Source of the DNA: a virus
Taxonomy: Duplodnaviria; Caudoviricetes
DNA: 64,000 nucleotides
IMG/VR virus record: IMGVR_UViG_3300048591_000242
Coordinates: 64,001-128,000 of that record
Reading direction: 5' to 3' (one strand)
Shown: piece after piece, positions 2,863-64,000 of the stretch
Numbering within the stretch: the first letter of the stretch is position 1
Layout of the letters: every line of letters starts with the position of its first letter
Notes under the pieces: generated by a model
Seen by the model: the letters and a program-made list of their open reading frames with translations, nothing else
The model's database searches: none
Told to the model about the DNA's origin: nothing
Program-made: the position numbers and the translations under genes

Positions 2863-2873
2863 TATTTTTAAAA

Positions 2874-2883
2874 TATATATTAC
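2874..2883 (+). promoter_or_regulatory. putative early promoter TATATATTAC
   Basis: Recurrent intergenic motif that matches the phiKZ early-promoter core TATATTAC. Confidence 0.6.
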
Positions 2884-2913
2884 CATAACAGACAAGACTT
2901 GTAGGAGAGTGTT

Positions 2914-3312
2914 ATGGTAGCAAATATAGGTATAAACGTACACATAGGTAAGTTCAAAAAGGCTATAGCAGATAAGGTATTAGATTATAAAGACGCTATT
3001 TATTTAGGCTTTATAGATATTCTAGTATGTACATACTCTGAAGAATCCATGAAAGAAATACCAGTATATCCCTTGGATAGAAGTCATAGTCCGTTAGCTG
3101 TTTTACTGGACATTGAGTTAGAGGCATTAAACGCAGGTATGGCCCCTAGAATGGCTAAGAACGTAAGTTCTCTATTTAGGCTATTTATGGACTCCTGTAC
3201 CGAGTCTCCTCCTAGGACAGTGAGTTATAGTTGTACTAGAGGCAGCGACGGTACATTACTTATTTATACCAAACTAAATGGAATCTACGTTTCTTTTAAA
3301 TTCTCATATTAA
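2914..3312 (+). CDS. hypothetical protein
   Basis: ORF with RBS AGGAG, downstream of the promoter motif. Confidence 0.7.
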   Translation: MVANIGINVHIGKFKKAIADKVLDYKDAIYLGFIDILVCTYSEESMKEIPVYPLDRSHSPLAVLLDIELEALNAGMAPRMAKNVSSLFRLFMDSCTESPPRTVSYSCTRGSDGTLLIYTKLNGIYVSFKFSY

Positions 3313-3328
3313 CCACAGGGGTATTTGT

Positions 3329-3721
3329 ATGTCTAGGGCGGTGCTTAAGGTAATTATGCGTGAACTAAAGGAGAACATCATAAAAGGAGAAGAGGCAAAG
3401 GAAAAGGAATATCTTTTAAATGAAATAGATCTGTGGCTTTCCACTATAACTGAAGATAACCTTAACAAAGAATTAAATAGTAAGGTTCGTTATATAAAGG
3501 ATATATCCAACCTTACCACCACCATAAAAACCGAATTTGAATCTGTCGATATAGACAAGGATGTGGCTGATAAAGCTTCCTGGTATGTAGATCAGTTATT
3601 AACCTTAATGCTATTGCATGCGGACGTTATCGGCTACAGCATAGTCAGTAGTATCAGATATAAGTCGGTTACGTTACGTATACTTACCGATAAATTCGTT
3701 GTAGTGCTTAGGTTTATCTAG
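3329..3721 (+). CDS. hypothetical protein
   Basis: Track ORF 3278-3721; likely start at MSRAVLK after a GGGG RBS. Confidence 0.6.
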   Translation: MSRAVLKVIMRELKENIIKGEEAKEKEYLLNEIDLWLSTITEDNLNKELNSKVRYIKDISNLTTTIKTEFESVDIDKDVADKASWYVDQLLTLMLLHADVIGYSIVSSIRYKSVTLRILTDKFVVVLRFI

Positions 3722-3791
3722 TATGAGGGAAGGGTCAAAAATAACAAACTTTGGTTATAGTTTGCTACATTAATCGTTAAGAGGAGGTTAA

Positions 3792-4028
3792 GTGAAATCA
3801 CTAATCGGGTTCTCTAAAAAGATATTGTCCAATCATGTATGGACAGTTTTTTTAATATCTTTAGTTTTATTTATCTACAGCGCTATCACTACGATAGCGG
3901 CGGTAACTATGTACTCTAAACTGGATGCACTTAGCTTAGAGAAGGAGAACATAGTCTCTTTAAAAGAGGAATTAGAGGTATGTTACAACAACGAATACAG
4001 TAAACTTCTAACCACATTAAAAGAATAA
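3792..4028 (+). CDS. membrane protein with C-terminal coiled coil (possible i-spanin-like)
   Basis: GAGGAGG RBS, GTG start, TM helix followed by a heptad-like segment. Confidence 0.55.
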   Translation: MKSLIGFSKKILSNHVWTVFLISLVLFIYSAITTIAAVTMYSKLDALSLEKENIVSLKEELEVCYNNEYSKLLTTLKE

Positions 4029-4043
4029 ACGGGTATAGTAATC

Positions 4044-4442
4044 GTGAAAAAAACAATACTAGCTGCTTTACTGGTAACTACAACTACCAGTTGCAGCGTC
4101 ATAAGGGTAGAGCCAGAGCCCTTACTTAGTCCACAGCCAATAAATATCTCAATAACCTTACAGATCGAAGAGGCAGATCGTCCGGTAGTTCAAGCAGCAT
4201 CAGATCCACCAGCAGTAATGGAAAAGATAGTAACCAAAATAGAGTATGTATCTAAACCGGTGTGTACACACCTTAAAGATATATACTCCCTAGAGCCATT
4301 TACATTAGAAGAAATCTCTTTAAATGGTGAAGCGGATAGATTGCGTTATCTTAAGTTACTTATAGATAGGGTAAATCTAGTGGATGGTATTATTGCAGGG
4401 GCTAATAACAATGTCGAGTGCAGAAAGCAGTTACAAAAATAA
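4044..4442 (+). CDS. putative lipoprotein (possible second o-spanin-like)
   Basis: MKK + hydrophobic stretch + TTSC lipobox-like signal, Pro-rich N-terminus. Confidence 0.55.
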   Translation: MKKTILAALLVTTTTSCSVIRVEPEPLLSPQPINISITLQIEEADRPVVQAASDPPAVMEKIVTKIEYVSKPVCTHLKDIYSLEPFTLEEISLNGEADRLRYLKLLIDRVNLVDGIIAGANNNVECRKQLQK

Positions 4443-6294
4443 AATAATAGTAATGGACTGGATTAATGGCACGGTTACGGAGTATGCCGATTTAGAAGAA
4501 GCTTCTAAAGGGACTGGGTTATCCCTAGAGGAAGTTAAAAATGCTTCTAGTAGAAACAAAGCTATTATTTATAGGGATTTGGTTATCTACAAGGAGGGTA
4601 CTGCCCATAGTAGAACCAATATAATTAAAGCGACTGCTAAGTTAAAGGAGCTTCCTATAGAAAGATCTTTGGTCTATCAGCAGGAAGGTTCCAGTAAGTG
4701 GTATATAAAACCACTTAAAGACATAGCTAGATGTGTAGAGGTAGATCCTACACAACTAATGAAGAAAGTAAAAGAGGTTTCCCCTAAACCGCTATCTGGC
4801 AAATATATACGGGAAATTTGGGAAGTCGACTTAACTGAAACAGAGGCTATATTAGTGGGTAAATGTGATCACGGTGGGATGGATTTATCGGAAAAAGATT
4901 CGGTGTTTCAGAATACCCTAAACAATACTCCTTTACCGGGAGAAGTAGCTTCTGAAATTACTTTCTATGTAGACGGTTCTACCGCCCCTACTAACCCTGG
5001 CCCATCAGCATTTGGGATATGGGGAGAGGATAGCAATGGCAACTTCTACAATAGTTGGGGATATGTAGGGGACATGGAGACTAATAACCGAGCAGAGATG
5101 TTTGGCTATATACGTCTACTCGAATCCGTGCTACATTACGGATGGAAAAAGGTAACTGCATTTTTTGATAGTAAGTATGTATTAGATAATGCTACTCGTA
5201 GTTTACCTAGATGGAAGAACAACGGTTGGAAGAAGGCAGATGGTGATATTATTTCCAATCGGGAGCAGTGGGAGAGAATAGCCACATTACAAGAAGCAGT
5301 TAAAGCCATGGGCATAACTGTAACTCATCGCTGGGTAAAAGGACATAGTGGTGATCCAGGTAATGAAGCTGCCGATGTAAATGCTAATAAGGGTAGAATG
5401 GCTGGCTTAGCAGGTAATACCGACCCTGTGTTTCTTATAGAAGAAGCTAAAGTAGGAGAAGAAGAAACCTCTAAGATTAAGAAAGTTAAGATACCGCCTT
5501 GCAATAAACTTATTAATGGTAAGCGACTTATCTTTACTACCAAGACACCGCCTTGTACCGCAGATGGCAGATTCATATACCTTGTAAACTCATTTGAGGG
5601 AGGTGTAGAAAAGACCGGTAGATTTATAGGTAAGCCTGCCAGCGATAACATGTATGGCGTAGTACTTACTAAGGAACCTATCCCACAGCTACAAGCTATT
5701 ATTTCTTATCAGAACAAAATTACTCCTGGAGACTTTGTACAACCAGTAGTAGGTATTCTAGATAGAATAGTAAGACCAGCTAACTGGGAGATGCTTACTA
5801 CTTATGGCAATACCCATTTATGTCATAACCGATTAAACATAACCACCGTAGATAAGGAGCCACTTACTCTATATCAAAGACCCGCTAGATTAGCCTATGA
5901 TGCTATAAACATTCTATCAGTTATGCTAGATAGATTAGAGCGATTTATGTCTAACGTCAAATATCAGTCTGAGGATTACGTAGATATAACCGATAGCATA
6001 TATACCGTTAGCGGTAAGAAGATATCTTTACTAAATACCATAGGTAGTGGATCTAAGTCTATAAACATAGATCTAGACTATCGCGGTAAGAAGTTAACTT
6101 TAGCGTTATCTTTGGGTATAGATTTACCTGATAGAAATAGCTTAAGTGGTATAGCTAAACAGAATAAGGAAATTACTGTAAGCTTACTTAGATATGACTC
6201 TGGCGCTGCCGGTTTCAGATATGCAGTGGCATTTAAAACAGAAAACGATTACGCTCTATATAGTACGTCAATGGCTAACATCAAGGCAGTATAA
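4411..6294 (+). CDS. rnhA: ribonuclease HI (phiKZ gp155-like) with N-terminal extension
   Basis: RNase H motifs 'FYVDGS', 'TNNRAEM', 'FFDSKYV', 'WKNNGWKKADG..ISNREQW', 'WVKGHSGDPGNEAAD'; the start position is uncertain. Confidence 0.9.
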   Translation: MSSAESSYKNKIIVMDWINGTVTEYADLEEASKGTGLSLEEVKNASSRNKAIIYRDLVIYKEGTAHSRTNIIKATAKLKELPIERSLVYQQEGSSKWYIKPLKDIARCVEVDPTQLMKKVKEVSPKPLSGKYIREIWEVDLTETEAILVGKCDHGGMDLSEKDSVFQNTLNNTPLPGEVASEITFYVDGSTAPTNPGPSAFGIWGEDSNGNFYNSWGYVGDMETNNRAEMFGYIRLLESVLHYGWKKVTAFFDSKYVLDNATRSLPRWKNNGWKKADGDIISNREQWERIATLQEAVKAMGITVTHRWVKGHSGDPGNEAADVNANKGRMAGLAGNTDPVFLIEEAKVGEEETSKIKKVKIPPCNKLINGKRLIFTTKTPPCTADGRFIYLVNSFEGGVEKTGRFIGKPASDNMYGVVLTKEPIPQLQAIISYQNKITPGDFVQPVVGILDRIVRPANWEMLTTYGNTHLCHNRLNITTVDKEPLTLYQRPARLAYDAINILSVMLDRLERFMSNVKYQSEDYVDITDSIYTVSGKKISLLNTIGSGSKSINIDLDYRGKKLTLALSLGIDLPDRNSLSGIAKQNKEITVSLLRYDSGAAGFRYAVAFKTENDYALYSTSMANIKAV

Positions 6295-6831: not shown

Positions 6832-6875
6832 GCATATGTACACTGGTATCCCACTAGGGATACCAGTGTATGCTG
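6832..6875. terminator. bidirectional hairpin element between convergent genes
   Basis: 14-bp stem TACACTGGTATCCC/GGGATACCAGTGTA flanked by GCATA and TATGCTG. Confidence 0.75.
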
Positions 6876-6886
6876 TATTTCTTTTT

Positions 6887-7735
6887 TTATTTTAAATCAG
6901 CCAGTAGTTTATCTACACTATCATTGAATGCGGTTTGCAGCGTAATGTAGTTAAAGTTAGCTATGGATAACAACTCTAGCTCGTTGGCTATAGCAGTTAC
7001 AGTCTCGGCTAGCTGTTTTATGGTGTGTTTGTTTTGCGTAACTATTTCAGGGTGTTCCTGAGCTGTCTTTACATAGAGGTTTATTGCTGTCTCTAAGTCT
7101 TTTTCTGCCTGGAGTATTTTACTGTAATCTATTTTTTTAGCTACAGACTCACCCTGCTGAACAGCTATACCAGTTTTTAATACATCTTTGTTAGATACAA
7201 ATACTTCTCCGAACTTAACGGTATCTATATCTCTATTTCTATTTACTTTAGGGTCAAAGAAACTAGAGAGTACCTTTACCTCAGACTTAACGTCAATCGG
7301 TTTTAAGTTTTTATCTATCCATAGCTTGGATGAGAAGTCGTTCACGCTAACCGCTTTATTTAGATAAAGGGCCATTGGTATTAAGAGTCTTTTGTCAATA
7401 TCTGACATACGCTCCAGTAGGTCAGATAGGTACGTAGCATAGGGTAGTAGGTTATCAGTAAAACCCACTGGCTGGTACACCAGAATGTTCTCTACGGCTT
7501 TATATTCAGTTTTAGAAAGCACCTTATCTAAATCAGATACCTTCCTAGTTGTCGCAGAAATAGTACCGGATTTAGCAAAGCTGGAAATAGCTTCTACGGT
7601 TTTACCTAAACCCATTCGGCTTACAAAAGAAGACAGAAATTCCGTAAAGGTACTGAAACCTTCCATACCTAATTCTGCCATTAGTGCAGTGTGTTTAAAC
7701 TCATTACTGATAGACTGGATGTGTAGATTTTTCAT
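6887..7735 (-). CDS. virion (internal head) protein, probably processed by the prohead protease
   Basis: N-terminal S/A/G-x-E sites ('ISNE', 'GMEG') typical of processed head proteins in phiKZ-like phages. Confidence 0.55.
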   Translation of the reverse strand: MKNLHIQSISNEFKHTALMAELGMEGFSTFTEFLSSFVSRMGLGKTVEAISSFAKSGTISATTRKVSDLDKVLSKTEYKAVENILVYQPVGFTDNLLPYATYLSDLLERMSDIDKRLLIPMALYLNKAVSVNDFSSKLWIDKNLKPIDVKSEVKVLSSFFDPKVNRNRDIDTVKFGEVFVSNKDVLKTGIAVQQGESVAKKIDYSKILQAEKDLETAINLYVKTAQEHPEIVTQNKHTIKQLAETVTAIANELELLSIANFNYITLQTAFNDSVDKLLADLK

Positions 7736-7870
7736 TGTAAATAAACCTTAACGGGTATGGATTAAATTAAACTACCTAGGCAAATATTTTGACACCAGCG
7801 TAGCTTCAGTGTTATATACTATCTGAAAATACTACGCCTAAATAAACAGATATAATAAGGAAGTACTGAT

Positions 7871-9328
7871 ATGAGTTTTTTTGATTTAATGCCTAAGGCT
7901 CCCTCTATAAGACCGGCTTTATCTGTGGGCTGTTTGTTTGATATAGCCACTGGTAGCTACCATAAAGGTAAAGACGGTGAGTCTATTCTAAATGGCGGTG
8001 TGGCGGCAGTAAACTCAGTAGCTGGCCCAGGTAATACCTTTAAGTCAGAAATTACTAACTTTATGTTCTTTACTCCGTTATCCAGATACAGTTGTTCTAA
8101 GGGATTAGTCTACGATACAGAAAACTCTATGACTTATTCCCGATTAAATAGAGCAGCACATACTCAGCCTAATCTCAAAGAATTAGATATATCCGATCCA
8201 GATAATGGCAGAGTATTACTTACTCAATCCGCCGACATACTGGGCGATGAGTATTTTGAGAAAATAAAAGAAATAGCTAATGATCGTAGAAAGAACATTA
8301 ACAAGCTATTAAAGGAAACACCATTTGTAGATGATGCAGGGAAATACATCAAGATAATTGAACCGTTAATGGTGGTTATTGACTCGCTATCAGAGCTTAA
8401 GGTTAAGTCCGTACAGGAGAAGCTGGTTGATAAGAACGCAGTAGGTGAGTCAGGAGCTAATACGCAGTTCATGAAGGACGGCGCCGCTAAAACACAGATG
8501 ATTACTCAGATGCCTAATTTAGCTACCAAGTCGGGTATTTATTTTCATCAAGTAGCGCACATAGGCATGCCGATTGTAATGGATGAGTATGCTCCTAAAG
8601 CACCCAAGCTATCGCACTCTAAGCGCGGTACTAAAACCAAAGGTGTACCTGAGAAATTTGACTTTATCAACAATAACTTATTTGAAATATTTGCAGCTAG
8701 CTTCGCTATGAATAAATCAGATAAAGCCGCTCTATACCCTAAAAGAAATGCCGATAGAGATGCAGAGAACAAAGACCTTATGGTTTTGTATATCGTAAAT
8801 ACCAGAAACAAAGGTGGTCCATCTGGAGTAACCTTCGAGGTATTCATCTCTCAGTCAGAAGGCCTACTGCCTAATCTAACTATGTTCCATTATCTAAAAG
8901 AATCAGGCGGATATGGTTTACACATGGCCGGTAATAATAGCTCATTTGCATCTATATTCTATCCGGATGTAAAGTTCAGTAGAACCACCGTACGAGAGAA
9001 GTTAGACAGTGATTACAAACTCACCCGTGCCATAGAAATAGCTACTCAAATGAGACAGATGGAGATGCTCTGGAGTAACATAGATCCAGATTTACATTGT
9101 CCTCCAGAAGTGCTCTATGAGGATATAAAGAAATTAGGTTATGACTGGGATGTATTACTTGGCTGTACCAGAGGCTATTGGGTATTCATAGAAGATGAAC
9201 CTAAGGTGAGATATCATTTATCTACTATGGACTTACTAAACATGCGCTTAGGTAGATATAAGCCAAAGTGGTATGATGAGGCAGCTAAGAAACATAAGGA
9301 AAACAAACCACAGCGCTGGGAAAAGTAA
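7871..9328 (+). CDS. uvsX: UvsX/RecA-like recombinase (phiKZ gp152-like)
   Basis: Walker A variant 'GPGNTFKS', 'YDTE', Walker B 'VVIDSLS'; syntenic with RNase H and the gp149-like gene. Confidence 0.85.
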   Translation: MSFFDLMPKAPSIRPALSVGCLFDIATGSYHKGKDGESILNGGVAAVNSVAGPGNTFKSEITNFMFFTPLSRYSCSKGLVYDTENSMTYSRLNRAAHTQPNLKELDISDPDNGRVLLTQSADILGDEYFEKIKEIANDRRKNINKLLKETPFVDDAGKYIKIIEPLMVVIDSLSELKVKSVQEKLVDKNAVGESGANTQFMKDGAAKTQMITQMPNLATKSGIYFHQVAHIGMPIVMDEYAPKAPKLSHSKRGTKTKGVPEKFDFINNNLFEIFAASFAMNKSDKAALYPKRNADRDAENKDLMVLYIVNTRNKGGPSGVTFEVFISQSEGLLPNLTMFHYLKESGGYGLHMAGNNSSFASIFYPDVKFSRTTVREKLDSDYKLTRAIEIATQMRQMEMLWSNIDPDLHCPPEVLYEDIKKLGYDWDVLLGCTRGYWVFIEDEPKVRYHLSTMDLLNMRLGRYKPKWYDEAAKKHKENKPQRWEK

Positions 9329-60493: not shown

Positions 60494-61231
60494 TTATTTC
60501 GGCAAACCCATGGTAATATAACGCATATGTGTTTCGCGATCCGCCATAATACTTATCTTCTTCCAACGTATTCTTAAGATATCCCTATAGATCTCCCAAC
60601 TATCGGCATAGTCATCTACTAAACTACGCATTCTACCGTCTACTAAGCCGCCAGTGTTAGCAGTAATAGACATGTTTATAGAAAGTTTATTAAAGATATA
60701 GCCCTTTGTAGCTACTACAGCTAAATCACCAAAGTCTAAAAGAGCCTTTTGGTTAAAGTTAGAAAGATTGGCGTCGTTTACTATAGTACAGCGTAAGTGA
60801 CTGTTTTGATTCTGTGGGTTTACTGGCACGAAGATAGTATTTGGTGCCACTAGATATACCTCAGGTGTGCCGGTAAATCCAGGTACTCCATCAGATATAG
60901 CATACGGCTCAACCCCTCTATTTACTATCTCTAACGAAAGTACTGAAGATATTAGCCTACCGTGTGTTTGGGATAAAGGTATTTCTATACGTACACCTTG
61001 CTCCATATACGTCCAAGCGGCATGTACTAGCGGCACAGTAATTACCTCACCACCCACTATATTACAGTCTACCATAACTATCTTACCGATAACCTCACTT
61101 CTTATAGTGTAGTCTAGAGACGTTCTATCGGTGTGATATCCCCATTGATTGGTACCAAAGGCCAATGCCAAAAGTGCCTCCGGCACCTCTCTATAAACCC
61201 GGCTAATGGCGTAGTCGATTGCGTTTGACAT
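60494..61231 (-). CDS. conserved phiKZ-like protein divergent from phuZ (probable virion protein)
   Basis: 'MSNAIDYAI..V..EVPEALL..AF', 'GKIVMVDCNIVGG'; position next to the tubulin gene. Confidence 0.6.
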   Translation of the reverse strand: MSNAIDYAISRVYREVPEALLALAFGTNQWGYHTDRTSLDYTIRSEVIGKIVMVDCNIVGGEVITVPLVHAAWTYMEQGVRIEIPLSQTHGRLISSVLSLEIVNRGVEPYAISDGVPGFTGTPEVYLVAPNTIFVPVNPQNQNSHLRCTIVNDANLSNFNQKALLDFGDLAVVATKGYIFNKLSINMSITANTGGLVDGRMRSLVDDYADSWEIYRDILRIRWKKISIMADRETHMRYITMGLPK

Positions 61232-61287: not shown

Positions 61288-61300
61288 AGGTATATATTAC
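61288..61300 (+). promoter_or_regulatory. putative early promoter of phuZ, AGGTATATATTAC
   Basis: Same motif family, about 100 nt upstream of the phuZ ATG. Confidence 0.7.
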
Positions 61301-61403
61301 CCAATAGCAGTAACAGAAAATAACAGCTTCAAGGAATTCTATGCACAACCTAGGTATGGCGTGGCTTCTTATATTTTTCAACTAAAACAAAGGAAATTAA
61401 AAA

Positions 61404-61715
61404 ATGGCTAGAAACTCAATTTCTATTTACGGCTGCGGTGGATTCGGCATCAACATCGTCCGTAACTTTGTGAATATTCCAGATGACCCGGAGCGGCAAC
61501 TGTATCCAAAAACAAGCATTCATGCCATTGACACCAGTGACAGTAATTTGGGCGCTTCACACAATGACATCAAGCACCATGTGGTGCCCGGAATCGACGG
61601 TGCCGGTAAAAACCGTAAACGTGCGTATGAAGCTACGCTGCCGCACATTGCTACAATACTTAACGATCATCGGCCGGGTATATTCAACGTCGTCATATTC
61701 TCAACATCAGGTGGT
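61404..61715 (+). CDS. phuZ: PhuZ/TubZ phage tubulin, exon 1 (104 codons; the rest lies beyond the window)
   Basis: 'IYGCGGFGINI' (T1 loop), 'IDTSDSN', 'DGAGKNR', 'FSTSGG' = start of the T4 signature (GGGSGS in PhuZ); homology stops at GGT GGT (61710-61715). Confidence 0.9.
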
Positions 61716-61836
61716 AAAGTGATACATTAGTATCCATAGCCTGCTACAGCAGTGATGTTGTAGTAATCGTCTCCTAATTGCGGGAAACTCCTTCCTGTCC
61801 AATATTATGTTCACTAACATAACAAAGGTCAGGCAA

Positions 61837-62487
61837 ATGTCTAATTTTGAAACAAGAGTATGTTCGTATTGCAACAATGAGTATACGAATATTTATCGAG
61901 GACCACACGATGTGAAGGGATACACAATACCTACTTCATATTGTAGTAAATCATGCGCCGGAAAGGCGAAGGGTCCTATACTAGAAGATAGAGGTAAAGA
62001 AAACCTTAAGGCCGAAGCTTTGCAGTGCATTGAAGCGGCAGGTAGGTATCTCACTAAAGAAGAAATCTTAACTGAGGTTAAATGTTCTTCAAAAACACTT
62101 ACTAAACATGGTATTAAAATATCAGAACTAAATGCTGAATTAGGTTTCATTAAACCACGTTCAGTTTTTGAAGGTAAGGTGGGTAGGATACTTAAGGATA
62201 AATTTTCAAATGTAGAAAGTGAAAAAACATTTGAAGGTTTAACCGCACCAACAGGTTATCCCCTTAGGGTGGATTTTTATATACCCGAACTTAATCTAGT
62301 AGTTGAGGCCGACGGTTTACAACACTCCGATAAAAAACATCCATGGGCCACTCATCCCAATGGTACTGTCCGGGAATACGACGAAATCAAAAACAAATTC
62401 CTTCGTGATAATGAAATTGATCTTGTGCGTATTCCGTATAGTAAGAATGTTACTCCTGAAAGTGTTTTGGATAAATTAGATATTTGA
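61837..62487 (+). CDS. intron-encoded homing endonuclease 1 (PD-(D/E)XK/EDxHD, Vsr/DUF559-like) with N-terminal Zn finger
   Basis: CSYC...CSKSC, helical middle region, 'LRVDFYIPELNLVVEADGLQH', 'YDEIKN..LRDNEIDLVRIPY'; lies between the two P4 strands. Confidence 0.85.
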   Translation: MSNFETRVCSYCNNEYTNIYRGPHDVKGYTIPTSYCSKSCAGKAKGPILEDRGKENLKAEALQCIEAAGRYLTKEEILTEVKCSSKTLTKHGIKISELNAELGFIKPRSVFEGKVGRILKDKFSNVESEKTFEGLTAPTGYPLRVDFYIPELNLVVEADGLQHSDKKHPWATHPNGTVREYDEIKNKFLRDNEIDLVRIPYSKNVTPESVLDKLDI

Positions 62488-62709
62488 GAGCATTATATAC
62501 CAAGCTAATATCGAAAGATAAGTAGTGGCCTGACTAACTATCAGGGTATGGTAAAAATTATAATGATTGGACAATCCGCCGCGAAGCTTCTCTATGCTAA
62601 AGCAGTGAAGTGTGCTCAACGACTAACCCACTAACCAGGGTGTAGGGTACTAGTGTATCCGAAATGGAGACTGTCTTTAATCGACTAAAGTTTAATTATC
62701 AAAAATCTC

Positions 62710-63990
62710 GTGGGGGGATTTTTGATTCTGGAGGTGTTTATAGAAAAGTGGAAACTTGTAAAATTGGCACCAAATTATGAAATATCTAGCTGTGGAAAAG
62801 TTAGAAGAGTTAAAGATCACTACCATCTAAAAATTGGTATAGACAGATATGGTTATAATAAAATACATCTAATAAAAAATGATGGATCTAATTATTACAC
62901 AACCATACATCGTCTAGTGGCTATTGCTTTTGTAGATAATCCAAATAGATATACTCAAGTTAATCACAAGGATGGCAATAAAGCAAACAACCACTATACC
63001 AACCTGGAGTGGTGTGACGCAAAACACAACGTTATCCACTCGTATGTGAATGGATTAAACAACAACAGGCTACCCGTTATACTAAAAGATTTAAATACCG
63101 GCTATAAAAAATCTTTTATCTCAATAAAAGAAATGTGTAGATATTTAAATTTGAAACCAAATGTGGTTACTCCTTATATCAAAATATCCCACAAATACCC
63201 TTTTATGGGGAAATACGTAATTGAGGCCGATGAGACTGCTATAAAAGGTATATCTAATAGTAAATCACATGGTGTTGATTGTTATGTTTATGATCATGTC
63301 TCTTGCAAACTGACCAAATATCCAAGCATCAATATGGCTTCGTATTTTACAGGAATTAGAGGGCTATCTAATTTATCTAAATACAGTCCTATTAATGTTG
63401 CTGGATATACAGTAAGCAAAATAAGAGAAGAGTGCGTGTCTGATAAACACAAAATAAGTCTTACCTATGCATCTGAAAAGAGGGAAAAATATCACAGCGT
63501 TTCATACACCCAAAGATCAGACGAGGGATATGAGACATATGACTATTATACAGGAAAAACTGTATGGCACAAGGACAGAGACTGTGTTAGGGACTGGATA
63601 AACAAACACAGGGTCATATCCACCTTGCCCATAGAAAGCGATAACGTTAACGTAGCGGTATCTAGTTCTAAGAAAAATAGCAGAACATGTCTTCTTAGGG
63701 GCTATGGGGTAAGATCACTACTTCATGGTTTTGAATGGTTTCCTTATACGGAGGAAGTTATTTTATCAAACATGTATAATAGAAAATTCATTACTAAGTG
63801 TTTTAAGCTAAAAATGTGTGGCAAAACTGAAATAGTATTTGGCCTTCCGGCATTAGCTAAAATATTAAATGCGCCGCATGACATGCCTTTTAACAAAATG
63901 TCTGTTACGTATTTAAACTCGTTGCTAAACGCACCCCACGAAAGCGTAGAGCGACTTAATAACATAGTCGATTTAAAGATAAAGATATAG
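62710..63990 (+). CDS. intron-encoded homing endonuclease 2 (NUMOD4-HNH-NUMOD1 type)
   Basis: 'EKWK....NYEISSCGKVR', 'IHRLVAIAF', 'VNHKDGNKANNHYTNLEWCDAKHNVIH'; enclosed by P8, with the last codons overlapping P8 3' and J8/7; start uncertain. Confidence 0.9.
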   Translation: MGGFLILEVFIEKWKLVKLAPNYEISSCGKVRRVKDHYHLKIGIDRYGYNKIHLIKNDGSNYYTTIHRLVAIAFVDNPNRYTQVNHKDGNKANNHYTNLEWCDAKHNVIHSYVNGLNNNRLPVILKDLNTGYKKSFISIKEMCRYLNLKPNVVTPYIKISHKYPFMGKYVIEADETAIKGISNSKSHGVDCYVYDHVSCKLTKYPSINMASYFTGIRGLSNLSKYSPINVAGYTVSKIREECVSDKHKISLTYASEKREKYHSVSYTQRSDEGYETYDYYTGKTVWHKDRDCVRDWINKHRVISTLPIESDNVNVAVSSSKKNSRTCLLRGYGVRSLLHGFEWFPYTEEVILSNMYNRKFITKCFKLKMCGKTEIVFGLPALAKILNAPHDMPFNKMSVTYLNSLLNAPHESVERLNNIVDLKIKI

Positions 63991-64000
63991 TCTAGTCTGC

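Follow-up and report, generated by a model that had tools for sequence, protein, structure and literature searches.

Phage genes for replication, nucleotide metabolism and RNA polymerase (RNAP) are well-known hosts of group I introns that carry genes for homing nucleases. Among them are the introns of the T-even genes td, nrdB and sunY and that of the DNA polymerase gene of SPO1 and SP82, the last encoding the nuclease I-HmuI. Group I introns with HNH nucleases also occur in conserved genes of nucleus-forming jumbo phages: in PhiPA3, the gene of the virion RNA polymerase harbours the intron endonuclease gp210 (Birkholz et al. 2024, PMC11620839), and at the RNAP gene of Goslar the record annotates Intron_gpI beside an HNH gene. 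Bacillus phage 0305phi8-36 has a group I intron in recA that encodes I-Bth0305I, a member of the EDxHD family, and the EDxHD type was defined in the study describing that nuclease (PMC3239194). Here we report on phuZ, the gene for the phage tubulin PhuZ, in a stretch of 64,000 nucleotides (nt) of one strand (the window), which corresponds to positions 64,001-128,000 of the virus record IMGVR_UViG_3300048591_000242 (202,179 base pairs (bp), with terminal repeats). Very probably, one mobile group I intron of subgroup IA2, carrying two nuclease genes, interrupts phuZ between the second glycine and the serine of S-G-G/S-G-S.

This reading is directly supported by the continuity of the exons, the ribozyme architecture, the covarying conservation in six PhuZ lineages and the intact nuclease genes. 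With the T-even td, nrdB and sunY and the SPO1/SP82 introns, the element shares a terminal G, the P7.1 and P7.2 hairpins, U.G pairing for the 5' splice site and a looped-out nuclease open reading frame (ORF); its R and S elements, CAACGACUA and AAGAUAUAGUC, are presumably identical to those of the T-even IA2 introns, as judged from the T4 sequences and the Rfam consensus rather than from a direct alignment. It differs from these introns in interrupting a cytoskeletal tubulin gene in place of one for nucleotide metabolism or replication, and in having two nuclease ORFs instead of one. Compared with PhiPA3 and Goslar, the target is phuZ and not RNA polymerase, and a competition phenotype and nuclear-import behaviour are points on which gp210 stands apart. 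It is a typical mobile IA2 intron, a known kind of selfish element, and the cytoskeletal class of its host gene appears to be new, as none was found described. An earlier sequence-only reading of the window was aware of no intron in a phage tubulin gene, and our full-text search of the searchable literature, which returned reviews and the PhiPA3 gp210 study, likewise found none in phuZ.

A PhuZ-like frame (61404-61730) carries the motifs GCGGFG, IDTSDSN, GAGKNR and FSTSGG and, as the sequence-only reading had noticed, loses its similarity to tubulin right after GGT GGT (61710-61715), where it reads KVIH and then a stop. An in-frame second exon, starting with SGS after a terminal G, had been anticipated downstream. 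The analysis was carried past the window end into the 3' flank (locus L002, in which the coordinate equals the window coordinate minus 61000; positions above 64000 continue the window numbering), and the exon was found 64 nt beyond the window. The sequence over the 3' splice site is ...GGAAUAUAACG, followed by AGU GGA AGU GUG UUG GGC CCG (SGSVLGP). Joining 61715 to 64065 yields a protein of 347 amino acids (aa), and only this junction restores the tubulin signature SGG/SGS; the G-box GCGGFG is present as well.

The break can be placed at one residue because four independent comparisons agree: the tblastn matches of exon 1 (residues 1-104) and exon 2 abut exactly in the intronless PhuZ genes of Ea35-70 (between 171908 and 171909), RAY, Simmy50, Centimanus and SNUABM_54, which settles the comparison with intronless alleles that had been proposed earlier; in the PHROG 4733 profile the break falls between positions 101 and 102, exon 2 covering 102-299; in the solved structures it falls between residues 93 and 94 of PhuZ-201 (3R4V) and between 106 and 107 of 9PM9, exon 1 matching residues 26-93 and 6-106 of these entries, respectively; and the joined protein aligns without a gap across SGG/SGS to 10 intronless metagenomic homologues. 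Both exons are intact with all motifs present, and the C-terminal ...DGMVI tail is kept in the joined protein. Its nearest intronless relatives, all metagenomic, reach 48% identity over exon 2. In the PDB, the spliced product matches 3R4V, 3J5V, 3ZBP and 9PM9. With these PhuZ/TubZ proteins, from 201phi2-1 (3R4V and 3J5V), phiKZ (3ZBP) and 9PM9, it shares an end-to-end alignment, the G-box, the SGGSGS loop, the LD..D..NW helix-8 region and the ...DGMVI tail, although identity is low (E-values of 2e-9 to 3e-10 for exon 2 and 6e-8 to 1e-3 for exon 1).

The sequence between the two exons has the architecture of a group I intron (Table 1). The core elements listed in the sequence-only reading were located together with their partners, but some of the helices are not significant in this sequence taken singly: chance inverted repeats are abundant (43 of at least 11 nt in the AT-rich 2.4 kb, the chance level), and for the long-range helices support comes from five homologous introns. 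P9 and a terminal G, which had been expected beyond 64000, are both present, P9 to P9.2 running from 63997 and the G lying at 64064. The subgroup is IA2 because the P7.1 and P7.2 hairpins lie between P7 and the 3' strand of P3; both hairpins are conserved in five introns, in agreement with the earlier assignment. The stretch from J8/7 through P7 to P9, AAGAUAUAGUCUAGUCUGCAUGGAAACAUGUAG, aligned to the Rfam group I model RF00028 at high posterior probability. The GC content is 36% in the intron and 45-47% in the exons.

Exon 2 was searched against 1.84 billion representative proteins, and several PhuZ C-terminal fragments were found that start 4-8 residues before SGSV (MWNIT-, MEYS-, VLKIT-, MNIT- and MKIA-). 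The contigs of such fragments carry the same split phuZ, usually with a DUF7484 gene upstream. Five metagenomic phage loci with phuZ split at the same codon (L003, L049, L050, L052 and L053, all from uncultured phages) were used for comparison. The intron is thus not unique to this phage: homologous introns are recognized by sequence at the same GG/SGS codon in at least five other environmental phages, making six PhuZ lineages in all. Four of the five homologous introns reach the RF00028 gathering score of 50 bits (50.6-70.3 bits). Exon 1 ends with GGT GGT in all five complete alleles, and all six PhuZ introns end with CG, followed by (A/T)GT/ACA GG. The intron core of this phage shares 75% identity with the cores of L003 and L049 and 62-63% with the remaining ones, and PhuZ exon identity to L003, the best-studied relative, is about 36-41%. 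Since six PhuZ lineages, though diverged, have the intron at one codon, the tubulin signature loop stands out as what appears to be a genuine homing site.

Because a whole-intron MAFFT alignment was unusable in the 5' half, helices were compared with those of L003 piece by piece, and covariation was assessed with RNAalifold on three local pieces including the sequence of this phage. Changes on both sides were seen in 35 of the 62 predicted pairs: 15 of 19 in P9, P9.1 and P9.2; 10 of 25 in P6, P7.1 and P7.2; and 10 of 18 in P1 and P2. P3, P4 and P8 pair in all five complete introns and covary. For instance, P3 is GUCUCC/GGAGAC in four introns and GUCCCU/GGGGAC in L050, P4 is GCGG/CCGC versus GCUG/CAGC in L050, and the distal sequence of P8 differs in each intron. 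These patterns are strong evidence, at the level of sequence comparison, for an RNA structure that is conserved and under selection. Since the covarying structure is kept and the exons stay open across diverged lineages, splicing can be argued for; likewise, phuZ is probably still expressed, as its exons remain open and conserved across these lineages.

Further searches added no related loci. Neither the exon 2 search for related loci among viral contigs nor an exact scan of viral contigs for the P3-P4 stretch found any. The sole metagenome match to the P3-P4 stretch (L039) is a purine-rich low-complexity contig without coherent genes; it is taken as a chance match, and the contig is probably an assembly artefact. 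A pattern for the 3' S element matched 29 viral contigs, none of which has PhuZ, and these are other IA2 introns.

Table 1. Features of the interrupted phuZ gene, in window numbering unless a locus is named; the last five rows give the introns of the relatives.
Feature	Position	Strand	Description and basis
PhuZ exon 1	61404-61715	+	104 aa, ends FSTSGG; PHROG 4733 'tubulin PhuZ' positions 1-101, E 8e-29
Group I intron, IA2	61716-64064 (2349 nt; in window to 64000, last 64 nt beyond)	+	core helices and RF00028
P1	GGU 61713-15 with GCC 61739-41 (U61715.G61739); region 61708-61743	+	pairing check, five-intron consensus fold
P1 extension hairpin	61721-25/61730-34	+	pairing check
P10 candidate	UCCAU 61733-37	+	directly 5' of guide G, can pair with exon 2 GUGGA; complementarity
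P2 hairpin	61744-61763	+	compensatory changes in 8/10 aligned pairs
P3	61769-74/62666-71	+	pairing check, covariation
'P' element (P3 5' strand, J3/4, P4 5' strand)	61769-61784	+	AAUUGCGGGAAA
P4	61780-84/62575-79	+	pairing check, covariation
P5/P5a	UCC 61788-90, AUUAUG 61804-09 (61787-61809); partners within 62559-62572	+	pairing register uncertain
ORF1	61837-62487	+	216 aa, Cys4 zinc ribbon and predicted Vsr-like (EDxHD-type) nuclease; in-frame ATG also at 61807
P5b (GAAA-loop hairpin), P5c (CCUGA/UCAGG), P5a/P5 3' strands	62501-62572	+	minimum-energy fold; by-eye homology to P5abc of L053 and L049
P4 3' strand, 'Q' element AAUCCGC, P6/P6a/P6b domain	62575-62616 (P6 domain 62580-62616)	+	
'R' element with P7 5' strand, P7.1, P7.2, P3 3' strand	62617-62671	+	CAACGACUAA
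P7	62621-25/63988-92	+	pairing check
P7.1	62626-41	+	compensatory changes in five introns
P7.2	62645-60	+	compensatory changes in five introns
P8	62674-87/63965-79	+	one bulged U
ORF2	62710-63990	+	I-HmuI-like HNH homing endonuclease (NUMOD4-HNH-NUMOD1), P8 loop; start codon uncertain
P8 3' strand, S element, start of P9 (63997-)	63965-64000	+	overlap last ORF2 codons and TAG stop
J8/7		+	AAGAUAUAG; located with core elements
'S' element (J8/7 and P7 3' strand)	63980-92	+	AAGAUAUAGUC
P9	63997-64014	+	flank sequence
P9.1	64017-30	+	flank sequence
P9.2	64032-54	+	flank sequence
Terminal G	64064	+	...AUAACG before AGUGGA
PhuZ exon 2	64065-64796	+	starts SGSVLGP, 64 nt past window end; open frame to 64796
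L049 intron	4132-4512		381 nt; no nuclease ORF; RF00028 70.3 bits
L053 intron	3862-4512		651 nt; 74-aa ORF; RF00028 62.1 bits
L050 intron	2864-4515		1652 nt; intact 412-aa HNH; RF00028 53.5 bits
L003 intron	6846-8015		1170 nt; 243-aa ORF without HNH motif; RF00028 50.6 bits
L052 intron			3' part only

Several observations weigh against an active intron spliced after U61715. At the gathering threshold, no Rfam family matched in the window, and 61300-64000 had no group I match at E-values up to 10; with the 3' flank included, RF00028 scored 36.1 bits (E 2.7e-6, L002 2794-3014), which is below the gathering score. The P5 domain contains a 690-nt insertion inside a helix junction, and its pairing is ambiguous. 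No RNA run in a sequencing-run search contains the locus (among DNA runs, an aquaculture metagenome alone shared words with it). ORF2 has an ATA (62740) at the position of the ATG in the L003 relative. Finally, an isolated P1 of this phage folds with -8.6 kcal/mol when U61712 is used and with -6.7 kcal/mol when U61715 is used, a gap of 1.9 kcal/mol, and the position of the first intron nucleotide, Watson-Crick paired in four relatives, is an A.A mismatch here.

The Rfam null within the window is a false negative, arising from two ORF insertions and the cut 3' end. The absence of a match in the window, and the 36 bits obtained with the 3' end, are due to the two nuclease-gene insertions, of 0.7 kb and 1.3 kb, which the RF00028 model cannot bridge. 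The scoring with RF00028 that had been suggested earlier failed within the window; with the 3' end it was significant by E-value, and four homologous PhuZ introns scored above the threshold.

The P1 energies concern the 5' splice register. As exon 1 ends with a GGU GGU repeat, either U61712 or U61715 can pair with G61739, and base pairing alone does not fix the register. It is quite unlikely that splicing occurs mainly at a cryptic site at U61712, 3 nt upstream, giving a PhuZ with SG-SGS, or a mixture of two isoforms. This register would have five base pairs (CAGGU, 61708-12, with GCCUG, 61739-43), as against three for GGU, in addition to its lower energy, and the same CAGGU/GCCUG option is present in L049; splicing there would drop one glycine of the signature loop. 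However, the two glycines before SGS are kept in all 10 intronless homologues, and the consensus P1 fold of the five introns consists of U61715.G61739 plus two G-C pairs. In this consensus, four of the five introns have the first intron nucleotide paired to the base preceding the guide G, and the pair covaries (G-C, A-U, A-U and U-A). In L003, moreover, the register with U6845, the last exon U, is the minimum-energy fold. Because of the intronless homologues, the consensus fold and the L003 fold, we favour U61715 and take it as the probable splice site, with U61712 as a possible cryptic one.

The first nuclease gene, ORF1, follows the P5a 5' strand and precedes the P5b/P5c hairpins, both of which are retained 3' of the ORF. 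Its product matches PHROG homing-endonuclease families (E 4e-20 to 2e-7), and the family comprises about 100 homologous clusters at about 50% identity. Among 24 aligned homologues, C9, C12, C36, C40, E157, D159, H163 and D182 are invariant, and the last four may correspond to the composite E-D-x-H-D motif. An AlphaFold2 (AF2) model had a mean predicted local distance difference test (pLDDT) score of 90.9. Phmmer found no match in the PDB, and a Foldseek search with the whole model gave weak results cluttered with metallo-beta-lactamase rows. Clear matches came only from a Foldseek-independent structural search, which gave, over residues 108-216, Z 9.2 for Vsr (1CW0), Z 9.2 for I-Bth0305I (3R3P) and Z 9.0 for a DUF559 protein (3HRL). 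The superposition on I-Bth0305I covers 90 residues with a root-mean-square deviation of 2.8 Å, and both nucleases are encoded by phage introns; identity is 17%, and in place of the NUMOD2 repeats of I-Bth0305I the N-terminal half of ORF1 has a Cys4 zinc ribbon and a helical domain. Pfam gave no NUMOD match in ORF1, the N-terminus being a Cys4 ribbon followed by helices. Judged by the model, ORF1 is a Vsr-like nuclease of the EDxHD type with a different N-terminal domain, and not a strict member of the EDxHD family. The two-nuclease state of this phage is derived because ORF1 is missing from the introns of all five relatives. The ORF1 family is intron-borne elsewhere too, since the divDNAB helicase gene of another chimallivirus is interrupted by a group I intron (60.9 bits) encoding a homologue with 53% identity (L045, 3324-4471); in that intron, the nuclease gene lies 5' of the ribozyme core, near the 5' end, and not in P5.

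The location of ORF1 raises the question of whether it has crippled the ribozyme, leaving phuZ as a pseudogene or with low expression. Some nucleus-forming phages lack PhuZ altogether, ORF1 sits inside a helix junction instead of a terminal loop and is found in this intron only, and the ambiguous P5 pairing and sub-threshold Rfam score point the same way. Nevertheless, neither exon is disrupted or lacks a motif, the C-terminal tail is present, the core helices and junctions are intact and match those of relatives scoring 50-70 bits, P5b and P5c are retained, and ORF insertions in the periphery are normal for group I introns. We consider such damage very unlikely. Directly upstream of the ORF1 start there is a local imperfect 18-nt hairpin (61794-61833). 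An 8-bp helix, GGUCAGGC/GCCUGACU (61827-34/62528-35), was considered as an ORF1-enclosing stem and rejected, as it competes with the conserved P5c and as chance repeats of such size are common.

That hairpin and 8-bp helix, which flank ORF1, might also be read as marks of two elements (a twintron, tandem introns, or a free-standing nuclease cassette beside an intron) rather than of a single two-ORF intron, the more so as the nuclease genes come from unrelated families and members of the ORF1 family are placed differently in other introns. This is highly improbable: there is a single set of core elements, with the 5' strands of P3, P4 and P5 upstream of ORF1 and their partners downstream, Rfam found no second ribozyme at E-values up to 10, and no exon-like PhuZ sequence lies between the ORFs. 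That phuZ is permanently split, its halves being translated separately and then assembling as in some nuclease-split phage genes, is scarcely credible, for although gene callers give a C-terminal 239-aa product starting within P9.2, the break cuts a single domain inside its nucleotide-binding loop, the complete covarying ribozyme would be left without a role, and no ribosome-binding site precedes GTG 64047.

The second nuclease gene of the intron, ORF2, matches I-HmuI (PDB 1U3E, E 1.4e-14), the nuclease of the SPO1/SP82 intron, with the motif NHKDGNKANN...NLEW aligned and intact. In Pfam, NUMOD1 was above the cut-off and HNH_3 and NUMOD4 were just below it, and the match to PHROG 59 had an E-value of 4e-37. 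The end of ORF2 has a double role: its last codons and TAG stop also form the P8 3' strand, J8/7 and the first part of the P7 3' strand. In the relatives, the HNH gene of the P8 loop is intact (L050), truncated (L003) or absent (L049); in L053 there is only a 74-aa ORF. These states illustrate the life cycle of a nuclease gene (intact, decayed and lost), and in this phage a second nuclease, of a different family, is added.

A hairpin, AUCAAAAAUC-UCGUGGG-GGAUUUUUGAU (62699-62743), lies just 5' of the HNH coding region. L003 and L053, the latter without a full ORF, retain hairpins whose loop is similarly G-rich (GUGG(G)). The candidate starts of ORF2 (GTG 62710, TTG 62722 and GTG 62734) lie in or beside the conserved hairpin. 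The hairpin and the ATA could mean that translation of the nuclease is controlled, or that its start is decaying.

At the other end of the intron, AACGAGUGG occurs as a direct repeat, at 64042-50 in the P9.2 loop and 3' stem and at 64061-69 across the 3' splice site (L002 3042-3050 and 3061-3069). All six PhuZ introns have UAACGA as an invariant P9.2 loop on a covarying stem, which suggests that the loop makes a tertiary contact or takes part in the choice of the 3' site.

The mechanism of splicing we infer by analogy with the T4 td, nrdB and sunY and the SPO1 introns; catalysis, the register used, the targets of the nucleases and any benefit to the phage are likewise inferences. The pre-mRNA would fold into a ribozyme comprising P1 to P9.2, in which an exogenous guanosine would attack after U61715, wobble-paired to G61739 in P1. 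The freed exon 1 would then attack after the terminal G64064, exon 2 being held by P10 (GUGGA with UCCAU), and the ligated mRNA would encode the 347-aa PhuZ. Formation of the spindle would then depend on splicing, as the sequence-only reading had proposed. The nuclease genes appear to be sited so that the core stays unbroken, ORF1 in the P5 periphery and ORF2 in the P8 loop. Presumably, the nucleases cut or nick the intronless phuZ of co-infecting relatives, so that the intron is copied in by homing.

In the phage nucleus, transcription takes place in a compartment free of ribosomes, and splicing of the T4 td intron relies on help from translation. The phuZ intron would therefore have to splice without such help, and it offers a case for asking how self-splicing works when transcription and translation are separated. 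It is conceivable, if rather unlikely, that the intron serves as a competition weapon, both nucleases being imported into the nucleus of a rival intronless chimallivirus to cut or nick its phuZ. If so, the rival's spindle and capsid delivery would be disabled and the carrier would be protected by its own intron. The phuZ intron is a second natural case in nucleus-forming phages, after the PhiPA3 RNA polymerase intron, for asking whether intron nucleases serve competition between phages, its value being limited in that all six phages are uncultured. As public gene calls list the PhuZ of such phages as two fragments, surveys of its presence or absence may miscount it.

The genome around the locus is, by its gene content, predicted to be that of a nucleus-forming, chimallivirus-like phage, a prediction that follows from a nuclear shell protein, phiKZ-type RNAP beta subunits and a divergent DNA polymerase (divDNApol). 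The shell protein was detected with the PHROG 4795 profile ('nuclear shell protein', E 1.8e-37, record 139947-141860); the profile was needed, as a direct search of the genome with Goslar ChmA (chimallin) gave no match. Upstream of phuZ and divergent from it lies a DUF7484/PHROG 3179 gene (60494-61231, minus strand). The same arrangement is present in L003, L049, L050, L053 and the intronless L055, indicating a conserved neighbourhood.

Two further genes of this genome are split by group I introns. In the thymidylate synthase gene, about 1.2 kb before the window, the intron is ORF-less (RF00028 76 bits; record 62545-62805, L042 2545-2805), and the flanking ORFs cover positions 33-210 and 211-305 of the PHROG 160 profile. 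The intron in the RNAP beta-subunit gene (record 143171-144643, L041 4171-5643; RF00028 41 bits at L041 5233-5611) contains a 343-aa HNH ORF, and the two parts of the gene correspond to positions 1-418 and 413-475 of PHROG 2987. The split gene directly follows that of the nuclear shell protein, an order also seen in Goslar. Cores sharing about 70% identity with those of the PhuZ intron family are also present, unannotated, in the cultured Vibrio phages vB_pir03 (MT811961.1 39069-39256, L043) and 150E35-1 (L044), where they sit under small 'hypothetical protein' calls; the vB_pir03 locus adjoins an RNA polymerase beta gene.

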